DNA of 23,222 nucleotides from a virus. Its lineage: Duplodnaviria > Heunggongvirae > Uroviricota > Caudoviricetes. The first letter of the stretch is position 1, and every line of letters begins with the position of its first letter. The stretch lies in the IMG/VR virus record IMGVR_UViG_2529293142_000011; one strand, written 5' to 3'. Shown one piece after another: positions 6,001 to 9,000 of the stretch. Made by a program: the position numbers.

Positions 6001-9000
6001 TATGTCAGTACCTAATCGATAGCGAATCCAGTCATTCGCAAGGGAGTTCCATTCAATACCAGTGTGAGTGTATGCACTAAAAGCTCTGTCTCCAGTTACA
6101 GCTGTGTTGTGTCTTTTATTACTGCCTGATGGAGAGTAAATATCTTGCGCAATATGGAGAGATAATTGGCTCGAGTCTGAGATATCGTGGCTATATCCCA
6201 GAAATAAGCCTTGTGAGTAATCATCTCTGTTTTCATGTTTATTGCCATAAATATCATTAAGTATTGGTTGAAACTTCCCTGCATCATCATTTGCTAATGA
6301 TAATGCAAGGCTGTTCGCGATAGCTGAACACGTGGTAAATGACAGAGCAATAAAGACGCCAGCGATGACACTTTTTTTCATATGTTATTGTCTTCCTTTT
6401 TTTGAATGGTGCGCGTATTTTACATACATGAGTTTGTAATACAAGGTGCGTAATCAATATGATGTTTTATAATTGCGTGAGACAATTGATTTATTCGTTT
6501 TTTATTGCGGTTTTTATTATCTTTTAATGTAACGGTGTTTTTATTAAGTGTGTTTGCGTGGTGTTTTATGTTTTTTATAATTTTTGTTTTATTAAATTTA
6601 AATGCATTAGTAATGGCTATTCTATATAGCAATATAAGAACTGTTACAAAAAAAGGGGGGGCAATTACAGGTAGTTATGGATGATGAGTGAAACAGATAT
6701 TGGAGAACCGGGGAATGAATGATGTCTGAGTCTTATATATCAGAACTCCTTCGCTGTCGCTGGGGGCTCCTGTGCTTATGTCGTTTCCCCGATTCGGTTT
6801 TGAACGATTACCGAATGTTGAAGAATTATGCCAAAATATAGAAAGGATTTACTGCATGAATACCCAATATTTACAGTATGTTCGTGAGCAACTTATGGCA
6901 GCTACTGCTGACTTGAACGGAGCAACGAAAGGCCAGCTCGAAGCCTGGCAGGAGCATGCACAATTTGATACTGGTACATACAAACGAAAGAAGCCGCGCA
7001 TTCTGGATGTGGTAACTGGCAAGATGATTACGCTGGATAATACGCCGACTTCCGGTAAGCAGTCGTACGCAAAAGGTTCATCCATTGCTTTGGTCAGCCC
7101 GGTTGAATTCTCAACCTCTTCATGGCGCCGCGCGGTTTTGTCTCTCGATGAACATCAGAAAGCATGGTTGCTTTGGTGTTACAGCGAAAGCGTTCGATGG
7201 GGGCATCAGGTCACCATAACGCAATGGGCATGGAGCGAGTTTAAAGATTTGTTAAGTAACAGAAAAATTGCAGGTAAGACACTGGATCGCCTGAAGACGT
7301 TAATCTGGCTGGCTGCACAGGATGTGAAGAGCGAACTTGCAGGGCGTGAGGCCTATGAATACCAGACACTGGCATCATTGGTGGGAGTGACAACAAAAAA
7401 CTGGTCCGAGACATTTACTGAACGCTGGGTTGCAATGAAGCACATTTTTCTACAGCTTGATAGTGATGCTTTATTGTTTGTGACGAGAACACGTTCAAAA
7501 CAAAAGGCAGCATTTTTACAGCAAAATATTGCAAAACTGGATTAAAAGCCATATACTTCATGCAAATTTGGTATGTTGTAAAAAATGTATAAACCCGCTG
7601 CCGAGTGGGTTTTTTTATGCCCTGAGTTGTACTTGTACGGTAAACATGCTGGCTGCTATGTAATAGAGTTTTTTTAGCCTGTAACCTCTTGACGGCATTG
7701 AATTGCTTTTGTTATGAGTTGTAAGCCAATGTTATCATCTTGTATTGGGGTGGTTATGAAGGATGGTGCGCTGCTCAGGAGTTCTTCACTTTTTATTGCC
7801 TACATGGGATGCCTTGGATGGGGGAGTGCTTATTTCTATGGATGGGGTACTTCTTTTTACTACGGCTTCCCATGGTGGATTGTAGGTGCAGGTGTTGATG
7901 ATGTTGCCAGAAGTTTATTTTTTGCAGTTATCGTCATTGCTATATTTCTTATCGGTTGGGGTATTGGTGTTGTATTCTTTTTCGCAGTGAAAAGAAAACA
8001 TTCTATGCAAGAGCTAAATGTATTTCGCCTTTATTTTGCTGTGGAATTATTGTTTGTGCCGGCAATTATTGAGTTTTCTATATTGAGACAGAAGATTCAG
8101 GTACCTCTTTTGCTACTGTCAGCAGCGATTGCGCTGGCGGTTACAATTTCGATAAGATCTTATGGGCGATTTTTATCGGTATCATGCTTCTATGATAAGC
8201 CATTTATAAAAAAACATTTTTTTGAGATTGTGATGATTGCTTTTGTGGCATATTTTTGGCTTTTTTCATTTCTGACAGGATATTACAAACCACAGTTTAA
8301 GAAAGAATATGAAATGATTAATTATAATGATGGTTGGTATTATGTTCTTGCTCGTTATGATAATTGTCTGGTTTTGTCTACTTCTTTCAATGCAGGTAGT
8401 AAAAGGTTTGTCATTTATCAATCAGCACAAGATAAGAATCTTCAGGTTGATATTGTAAGGACCAGAATTTAATTGGCTGCATAAATAATATTTTAAGTTG
8501 CAAGTTGGCTATTCGTAGGAATAGAACCTTAGGCATGCTGAATGCGTTTTCTGAACATTGTTTTATAAACTGTGTCTGCTTGCTGTTGTGATCCTGCTTT
8601 TAGTGATGGTGATGATGGATTTCACCAGCAGGATAATGTTGGTACTGACTGATGGCGCTCTGGTCTGCGGCATTGTGGTATTGCTGTGGCCGATGATGAA
8701 AGAACAGAATGAATAATTCTTGACTTTTTGTTTACTGTTTATTAAAAAATCAACCGCATGGTGAATCCTCCTTGGAGGGGCTAAATGATCGAGTTTTAAG
8801 GGCACGTAGCGAGTTCTGTTTGATCATTGCAGAACTTAGCGGGAGGCGCCATGCGTACATCACTAGTGTTATTCCTTTTATCATTTTCCTTGTGAGTTCT
8901 GGCTGCGCATTGCGCAGCCTTTTTTTTATGACCTGCCACTGGCAGATGGTCATCCTGTGATTTGATTCCGCTTCCGGCTTTTTAACTCTGTTCCTCTACA

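Follow-up and report, generated by a model that had tools for sequence, protein, structure and literature searches.

The classical morons of lambdoid phages include bor and lom in lambda, lpxR and stx2AB in enterohaemorrhagic Escherichia coli (EHEC) and Shiga toxin (Stx) phages, and gp15 in HK97. Here we describe a locus of this type in a 23,222-nucleotide stretch of viral DNA (IMG/VR virus record IMGVR_UViG_2529293142_000011, Caudoviricetes), read 5' to 3' on one strand and called the window below. An AT-rich block at positions 7621–8716 encodes, on the plus strand, a membrane protein of the TfpB family (tfpB, 7756–8472, 238 aa) and a small DUF3927 protein (8558–8716, 52 aa), and is followed by the gene for the small RNA (sRNA) PasD2 (8756–8927). 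As an account of its structure, we lean towards reading this cassette as a lysogenic-conversion module with tfpB as its cargo. A moron in the slot between Q and the lysis genes is a classical type of element.

In Stx2 phages an STnc100-family sRNA lies 75 nt downstream of stx2 (PMC12370729). Because PasD2 follows the cassette in the same way, the tfpB-DUF3927 cargo sits exactly in the stx slot. The same slot carries tciAB in phages Evi and LMessi and a methylase with tRNAs in P0046- and P0019-type prophages, and the tfpB cassette is itself present in some related phages at the same position. Pfam searches and the phage 434 record place the block between the gene for a Q82-type antiterminator (Pfam Phage_antiter_Q, E = 1e-91) and that for a nanS-p-type esterase (domains DUF1737-SASA-DUF6645), with the lysis genes beyond. 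The first-pass annotation had described the block as more AT-rich than its flanks, and its GC content is indeed 37.6%, compared with 46% in the Q gene, 55.5% in the esterase gene and 50.2% in the whole window; tfpB alone is at 36.1%. Its further proposal, that an accessory block was acquired separately and sits in the late-operon moron slot, agrees with the stx-equivalent position and with prophage PP4 of enteropathogenic E. coli (EPEC) E2348/69, which has the module behind a different antiterminator.

The sequence has been recorded before. The window is 99.6% identical to the right arm of phage 434, rising to 99.9% at positions 7540–9010 (OL657226; genome announcement PMC9119081), where identity to phage 2B8 is 97%. 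The cassette region is 99.8–99.9% identical to prophage PP2 of E2348/69 (7546–9014), which has the same cassette with identical proteins, and at least 80% of positions 7540–9010 is present in 682 of 5,426 complete E. coli genomes. The large protein is identical to E2348C_0686/WP_001302581.1, labeled hypothetical in RefSeq, and to CPT_434_68 of phage 434; RefSeq calls the small one a DUF3927 family protein. The 434 record annotates at this place a terminator after Q, a "putative membrane protein", "TciB" (the DUF3927 protein) and a second small "putative membrane protein" overlapping a terminator. With the 434 and E2348/69 annotations, the families PF27470, PF13064, phrog_1521 and phrog_1470 discussed below, and the publications on PasD2, the whole block is already catalogued, and the first-pass view that neither product belonged to a recognizable family does not stand. 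PP4 carries the same tfpB and lacks the esterase gene, with homology to window positions 7592–9038. PP2 and PP4 differ cleanly by the presence or absence of the 1.85-kb nanS-p esterase gene, the PP4 homology jumping from 9038 to 10793. A 3-kb contig labeled "MAG: Veillonella sp." (JAIITD010000172.1) also holds a 100% identical tfpB-DUF3927-PasD2 cassette and is almost certainly mis-binned E. coli or phage DNA.

An open reading frame (ORF) scan gave a long plus-strand ORF at 7714–8472, previously taken as a 252-aa gene, and a small hydrophobic plus-strand ORF ending at 8716. Full-length homologues of the long ORF are nearly all 237–238 aa and align from the Met at 7756, the DNA of other contexts diverges directly 5' of this ATG, GGGGTGG stands 3 nt 5' of it, and E2348C_0686 was originally annotated at 717 nt. 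For these reasons the gene is most likely 7756–8472, starting at ATG 7756 rather than 7714, and its product most likely has 238 aa. The protein matches phrog_1521, a PHROG of unknown function, over profile positions 1–222 of 222 (E = 2e-154). A large protein-database search returned 108 clusters, all bearing the precomputed label PF27470, with the family name "TfpB"; the label is attached to a 100%-identical protein and to nearly all homologues, bar a few distant Klebsiella-type ones. The large protein gave no match in local Pfam, NCBIfam and PADLOC libraries, PF27470 being newer than the Pfam copy used, and a family-profile sequence search of solved structures returned no match. An exhaustive hidden Markov model (HMM) search of 1.84 billion representatives found 75 proteins at E < 1e-3 with the same architecture throughout, namely about 238 aa, five transmembrane (TM) helices, a C-terminal β-domain and the motif AY..LGW..AY.YGWG..YYG.PWW / ARSL. 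The proteins are from Enterobacterales, Neisseria and Pasteurellaceae. The distant full-length relatives belong to Neisseria, Actinobacillus, Gallibacterium, Avibacterium, Pasteurella and Mannheimia, Klebsiella, Enterobacter and Mangrovibacter carry a second subfamily, and named members come mostly from animal-associated Proteobacteria. The name of PF27470 was presumably taken from TfpB of Moraxella bovis/lacunata, an ORF of the pilin inversion region that may belong to this family; the mucosal lifestyle of Moraxella resembles that of the Neisseria and Pasteurellaceae in which distant members occur. A search of the literature on TfpB and Moraxella gave nothing usable, and the cluster look-ups contained no Moraxella-named member.

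In 14 of 14 pairwise comparisons, covering every context examined, the ratio of nonsynonymous to synonymous substitution rates (dN/dS, Nei-Gojobori) of tfpB was 0.05–0.18, and among Salmonella subspecies it was 0.05–0.07. Because the ratio is this low, even among Salmonella subspecies, substitution patterns indicate that tfpB is a real and functional gene that has been kept long after the surrounding phage decayed.

Transcript levels are available from the RNA sequencing (RNA-seq) of EPEC under virulence-activating conditions by Pearl Mizrahi et al. 2021 (base means; PMC8550237 Table S2). In PP2 these are 69 for Q, 226 for tfpB, 37 for DUF3927, 11017 for PasD2 and 102 for the esterase, compared with 3.5, 3.2 and 1.0 for holin, lysozyme and Rz; lpxR, at 2936, is the top protein-coding gene of this neighborhood (PMC8550237). 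In PP4 they are 6 for Q, 147 for tfpB and 5 for holin (PMC8550237). Expressed per base from the same data, tfpB RNA exceeds Q RNA by ∼3-fold in PP2 and ∼20-fold in PP4, and lysis gene RNA by ∼20–50-fold. Since tfpB RNA per base is far above that of Q and of the lysis genes, tfpB is transcribed in the lysogen independently of the late operon, and we consider it very probable that the moron is expressed in the lysogen. The tfpB mRNA is also found joined to an sRNA: RIL-seq, in which interacting RNAs are ligated and then sequenced, recorded 57 Hfq-bound chimeras between PasA and the tfpB mRNA (E2348C_0686, 740203–740290, codons ∼16–45) with an odds ratio of 2.39 and p = 0.022 (PMC8550237 Table S3). 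PasA forms chimeras with the esterase mRNA as well in the EPEC RIL-seq data.

A promoter-like element had been proposed in front of the large gene, and a consensus scan does find candidate sigma-70 sites on the plus strand at 7689–7738, one with TTGACG at 7689–7694 and one with TTGTTA (7709), an 18-nt spacer and TGnTATCAT (7738). Both TTGACG and the TTGTTA-18-TATnAn arrangement are retained 5' of a 59%-identical homologue on plasmids of enterotoxigenic E. coli (ETEC), where the surrounding DNA differs. Because these elements are common to the ETEC homologue, tfpB probably has its own sigma-70 promoter.

These expression data also bear on a different view of TfpB, in which it would be a late accessory of the lytic cycle, a channel or holin-like protein, possibly an oligomeric channel of the MscS type, that tunes lysis or releases AB5 toxin or esterase cargo. 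The gene does belong to the Q-dependent late transcript, with the holin and endolysin genes following shortly downstream, and homologues directly adjoin the genes of LT-I, LT-II and a pertussis-like toxin. However, the 20–50-fold excess of tfpB RNA over lysis gene RNA was seen in uninduced lysogens, the gene is retained without lysis genes in the Salmonella sseJ islet, in Citrobacter rodentium and on plasmids, and a 238-aa protein with five TM helices is unlike holins. With the comparison to MscS given below, we regard a lytic accessory role as highly unlikely.

The tfpB gene is found in many kinds of place. A scan of a genome collection for tfpB gave 5 loci only. Relatives follow three different Q families. 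A homologue lies directly after a PF06530-type Q in Yersinia, and in Stx-phage-like prophages one lies after a PF06323-type Q and before a methylase. In P0019-type prophages the order is Q - methylase - tRNAs - STnc100 - tfpB - lpxR(-) - pmrD(-) - esterase, and in a Citrobacter freundii prophage the homologue comes after tail-fibre genes. Others lie next to virulence genes. One is flanked by the LT-II and the pertussis-like AB5 toxin operons of a lambdoid prophage; on STb-bearing ETEC plasmids the homologue is divergent from eltAB (LT-I) and ∼870 bp upstream of it; in Klebsiella the neighbors are STb, DsbA and a two-partner secretion system, and on E. coli chromosomes they are iroBC and a bor remnant. 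A further homologue is on an IncFII plasmid, one is divergent from a split lpxR on the C. rodentium chromosome, and one is divergent from sseJ in Salmonella, where it is STM1630 and is syntenic in subspecies enterica, diarizonae and arizonae. We verified the identity of STM1630 by its 717-nt length, the same 425-nt gap to sseJ and a published deletion primer that encodes its N-terminus. Comparison of these contexts indicates that tfpB is a free-standing moron, mobile on its own.

Two of the neighborhoods deserve separate mention. The position of tfpB near LT-I on the ETEC plasmids, taken with its place beside LT-II in the lambdoid prophage, fits a prophage origin of the LT-I region. The chromosomal site of STM1630, upstream of a frmA-like adh, a trg-like methyl-accepting chemotaxis protein gene and a LysR gene, is also that of the C. 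rodentium tfpB, and the partner gene there differs, being sseJ in Salmonella and lpxR in Citrobacter. The common site suggests either an old insertion with later exchange of the neighbor or an insertion hotspot. Overall, the pairing of tfpB with lpxR takes three forms: divergent around Q in phage 434, directly divergent in C. rodentium and convergent in P0019-type prophages; in the window lpxR is at ∼5422–6381 on the minus strand. The proximity of the two genes could be a functional linkage or a mere sharing of moron slots.

In order to obtain a structural picture of TfpB, we used an AlphaFold model built from a 55-sequence alignment that includes distant relatives (predicted local distance difference test score, pLDDT, 80.3; predicted template modeling score, pTM, 0.73), an earlier model from 26 close homologues (pLDDT 59) having been too poor for use. 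The model has TM helices at residues 10–36, 47–79, 84–111, 116–137 and 155–181 and a five-stranded SH3-like β-domain at 184–235, in keeping with the about five TM helices and soluble tail first proposed for this protein. Over the 55 sequences the mean number of Lys plus Arg residues is 1.7 at the N-terminus and 0.02, 2.6, 1.1 and 3.4 in loops 1 to 4. Because of these counts, the positive-inside rule predicts a cytoplasmic N-terminus, with loop 1 and the C-terminal β-domain in the periplasm. TM1 and loop 1 are the most conserved parts, and A15, A25, Y26, G31, G37, P39, G175 and Y195 are the only near-invariant residues. The family alignment contains no conserved acidic, His, Ser or Cys residue that would suggest catalysis, and we infer that TfpB is a non-enzymatic inner-membrane protein.

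TfpB has no match to any solved fold. Among the top sub-threshold fold matches MscS chains recur, and MscS-type channels do resemble TfpB in having TM helices followed by a small β-barrel domain. We nevertheless rejected an MscS-like channel, since the scores are at noise level, hhalign gives nothing against E. coli MscS and there is no profile similarity. In addition, TfpB lacks both the Gly/Ala pore helix that precedes the β-domain in MscS and its C-terminal αβ domain, and its β-domain is predicted to be periplasmic whereas that of MscS is cytoplasmic. The same observations count against the channel version of the lytic accessory.

The second gene of the cassette probably has a different history. 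What had been noted as a possible 36-aa single-TM peptide corresponds to the C-terminal two-thirds of a 52-aa protein with two TM segments, encoded at 8558–8716 on the plus strand. It matches PF13064 (DUF3927) with 53 bits (cut-off 25) over residues 7–50 and phrog_1470 "TciB-like" with E = 2.5e-17, and it aligns with TciB of P1, Evi, LMessi and the N4-like phage Pollock, the DFTS...DG..V...WP motif being invariant. In those four phages a TerB-like tciA comes first, its stop codon being overlapped by the DUF3927 gene, and in Evi and LMessi the tciA-tciB pair lies between Q and the lysis genes. Canonical TciB is thus translationally coupled to the TerB-domain protein TciA; the window copy, in contrast, has no tciA, starts with TTG and shows relaxed constraint. 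In P1, tciB is non-essential (PMC10695390), as is tciABC as a whole; tciA is homologous to TerB, and tciB has its functional annotation by association only. We therefore did not adopt resistance to tellurite or to colicin, or cell-division inhibition, as a function of TciB, as the name derives only from the similarity of TciA to TerB and our literature search found no experiment.

Five observations explain why we regard the DUF3927 gene as probably what is left of a tciAB cassette in which tfpB took the place of tciA. DNA similarity between the window and Evi begins at DUF3927 codon 3–4 and runs through the sRNA and terminator, with unrelated tfpB and tciA upstream. The breakpoint leaves a TTG start without a Shine-Dalgarno sequence, 85 nt after tfpB. 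Indels destroy the DUF3927 frame in E. albertii and another Escherichia species, where tfpB stays 97% and 94% identical, respectively. A six-frame HMM search found no DUF3927 gene adjoining tfpB in any other context. Lastly, DUF3927 dN/dS is 0.72 between the window and Evi, compared with 0.18–0.20 between tciA-linked copies.

These observations also decide a question raised in the first-pass annotation, whether the two genes co-occur: they do not, the usual partner of DUF3927 being TciA. We accordingly dropped tfpB and DUF3927 as a conserved pair, and it is quite probable that DUF3927 is not an obligate partner of TfpB. One could still imagine tfpB and DUF3927, together with PasD2, as a single working unit, such as a two-component membrane complex or a toxin/antidote-like pair. 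The three elements do stand together behind two Q genes in E2348/69 and in ∼680 genomes, DUF3927 RNA per base is similar to that of tfpB, and the ORF is intact in most copies. Against this stand the lack of pairing elsewhere, the otherwise constant coupling to TciA, the breakpoint exactly at the DUF3927 start, the lost frames and the relaxed dN/dS, and we consider a single unit very unlikely. With the intact ORF and the RNA, a residual role of DUF3927 is possible alongside the preferred reading of it as a relic.

The cassette ends with an sRNA. Window positions 8756–8927 are identical in 172 of 172 nt to positions 741157–741328 of E2348/69, the coordinates given for PasD2 (PMC8550237 Table S6), and they have the one mismatch to the published Northern probe that marks PasD2. 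[quoted passage not shown] In Rfam, 8726–8930 gives a full-length match to RF02076 STnc100 with 41.4 bits (E = 1e-7), below the gathering score of 47, whereas genuine STnc100 copies in other tfpB loci score 81–146 bits. The plus-strand element TTGACT-17-TAAAAA at 8720–8748, read from the sequence and unreported by the consensus scan, ends 7–8 nt 5' of PasD2 and is a promoter-like element kept in Evi, 2B8, E. albertii and Escherichia sp. The strong terminator announced behind the block exists, as a terminator scan places an intrinsic terminator at 8901–8919 followed by T8; it is, however, the terminator of PasD2, lies outside 7621–8716 and is the only one of the cassette. The PasD2 - sialic acid esterase - PasA - holin order of bioRxiv 10.64898/2026.05.13.724894 is also present in the window, with the 84-nt PasA sRNA outside the block at 11014–11097 on the minus strand, between the esterase and holin genes and 100% identical to E2348/69 PasA.

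The PasD2 assignment affects one annotated gene. The 62-aa ORF CPT_434_70 (8772–8960) was considered as a third membrane protein and rejected: it has no family, overlaps PasD2 and is broken in Evi by indels of 13, 8 and 13 nt. It is most likely not a gene and instead an annotation artefact over the sRNA. A RefSeq minus-strand pseudogene at the same place is probably an annotation artefact too.

A relative of the window TfpB with published data is STM1630 (SL1344_1560) of Salmonella Typhimurium. Like the window protein it belongs to PF27470, has 238 aa and the same architecture, and it is 46% identical; its gene is AT-rich, horizontally acquired, bound by H-NS, non-essential and equipped with its own promoter. 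Unlike the window tfpB, it is chromosomal, fixed beside sseJ and steB and not part of a prophage. Canals et al. list it as an H-NS-bound gene of unknown function (PMC6785131 S1 Text), expressed in medium inducing Salmonella pathogenicity island 2 (SPI-2) and in macrophages, silenced in ST313 by two single-nucleotide polymorphisms in its own -10 box, and dispensable for growth in LB (PMC6785131). It belongs to a set of genes co-regulated with SPI-2 by virulence regulators (PMC2639726), and transposon mutants are attenuated in calves and chicks, as cited in PMC6785131.

Based on these comparisons, we propose that the cassette is a mosaic lysogenic-conversion module in the stx-equivalent slot of a 434-type lambdoid prophage, lying between tR' and an STnc100-family sRNA. 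In this scheme tfpB would be the selected cargo, with transcription in the lysogen and, when the phage grows lytically, read-through from pR', and the AT-rich gene would probably be silenced by H-NS and de-repressed under host-like conditions as is STM1630. TfpB would face the periplasm with its conserved Gly/aromatic TM1-loop and small SH3-like β-domain, and it may act at the envelope by binding or oligomerizing and not by catalysis, altering a host-association or stress phenotype of the lysogen. It would then be a lysogenic-conversion factor in the sense of bor, lom and lpxR, and not a virion, replication or lysis protein. DUF3927 would be a leftover, transcribed and probably dispensable. 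Since the Salmonella orthologue is domesticated and co-regulated with SPI-2, and since tfpB recurs in toxin and virulence neighborhoods, we favor host adaptation, giving a role in the envelope or in host adaptation rather than in phage defense about an even chance.

Phage defense is the strongest competitor to this role, with TfpB, alone or together with DUF3927, as an effector of superinfection exclusion or abortive infection that blocks DNA entry or collapses the membrane. An inner-membrane protein expressed in the prophage state, located in classic moron slots and spread across many unrelated prophages and plasmids would suit this function, a glycine-zipper-like motif in TM1 (G21/A25/G29, G23/G31) would suit an oligomeric pore, and many exclusion proteins have no recognizable family. 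On the other hand, PADLOC-DB 2.0 contains no defense family matching any of the three ORFs at E ≤ 0.1, and phrog_1521 has no assigned function. In Salmonella the orthologues are fixed in the chromosome across subspecies, evolve under strong purifying selection and share their regulation with SPI-2 virulence genes, which is atypical of fast-turnover defense genes; copies of tfpB also survive within remnants of decayed prophages and on plasmids that carry toxin genes. In classical immunity tests lambda forms plaques on 434 lysogens, and an exclusion function would therefore have to spare lambda. We conclude that an exclusion function is rather unlikely and that the envelope or host-adaptation role is to be preferred.

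Several observations weigh against the proposed account as a whole. The proposed promoters are consensus matches only, and the RNA-seq base means are not strand-resolved start site data, with the identical PP2 and PP4 copies sharing reads. The topology of TfpB and the label non-enzymatic are predictions. Co-location with virulence genes may merely reflect common moron slots. The relaxed dN/dS of DUF3927 comes from 52 codons only, and the ORF is intact in >600 genomes and in PP4, with RNA per base similar to tfpB. Finally, the Salmonella phenotypes are weak or inconsistent: deletion of STM1630 in 4/74 raised, and did not lower, intramacrophage replication (PMC6785131), the attenuation in calves and chicks was seen in a transposon screen, where polar effects on sseJ or steB could be the cause, and the hypermotility of a deletion mutant (PMC4219756) was not among the phenotypes confirmed on re-testing (PMC4534456).

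The function of TfpB matters because the protein is present in 434, one of the phages on which molecular biology was founded, in roughly one-eighth of complete E. coli genomes and, as STM1630, in Salmonella, because its repeated neighbors are LT-I, LT-II, pertussis-like toxin, STb, SseJ, LpxR and iro genes, and because it is under strong purifying selection. To assign it would fill an annotation gap in the accessory genomes of EHEC, EPEC, ETEC and Salmonella and would show whether a common moron contributes to envelope remodeling, virulence or phage resistance. It is doubtful, though conceivable, that TfpB is a new mobile envelope effector, either an inner-membrane phage-exclusion protein or a membrane factor coupled to adjacent virulence cargo; on both versions a copy would have been domesticated into the Salmonella SPI-2 regulon. 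In the coupled case it might, for instance, unlock the latent outer-membrane lipid A deacylase LpxR or aid AB5 toxin export. As practical gains, the start codon of tfpB is most likely corrected, DUF3927 is probably a relic, and the second "membrane protein" coding sequence of 434 most likely represents the sRNA PasD2.

Upstream of the block, a consensus scan finds the plus-strand site TTGCAA-17-TATACT at 7529–7557, over the end of the Q82-type gene and immediately 5' of the terminator annotated after Q in the phage 434 record; by analogy with pR' of phage 82 and lambda, it would be a pR'-like late promoter. The terminator, at 7591–7619 on the plus strand, was found by terminator scan, which places it at 7591–7612, and is also annotated in OL657226. 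It is tR'-like and would end a short leader RNA, with read-through by Q-modified polymerase. Judged from the PP4 homology, which begins at window position 7592, it also forms the left edge of the mobile module. Together, the promoter and terminator (7529–7619) would yield a leader RNA of ∼55 nt. Such a leader would be analogous to 6S RNA of lambda or StxS sRNA of Stx phages. AT content in the region peaks at 6400–6700 (28% GC), the divergent intergenic DNA between lpxR and ylcG/Q and presumably a regulatory, H-NS-prone segment.

Measured against known systems, the closest counterparts of the locus are CPT_434_68/69/70 of phage 434 and E2348C_0686/0687 with PasD2 in EPEC PP2, essentially identical to the window in sequence and sharing with it the order lpxR - ylcG - Q - tfpB - DUF3927 - PasD2 - esterase - PasA - holin. 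Those records differ in naming alone ("putative membrane protein" or "hypothetical"), apart from the 62-aa ORF that 434 adds over PasD2. STM1630 is comparable at the level of the protein, with its induction in SPI-2 medium and macrophages. In neither sequence nor fold is TfpB related to bor, lom, lpxR, stx2AB or gp15. What it shares with these classical morons is a defined slot, deviant base composition and a product predicted to reside in the cell envelope; those morons also have their own promoter and terminator and are expressed from the repressed prophage, where tfpB has a candidate promoter, the PasD2 terminator behind it and the lysogen RNA described above.

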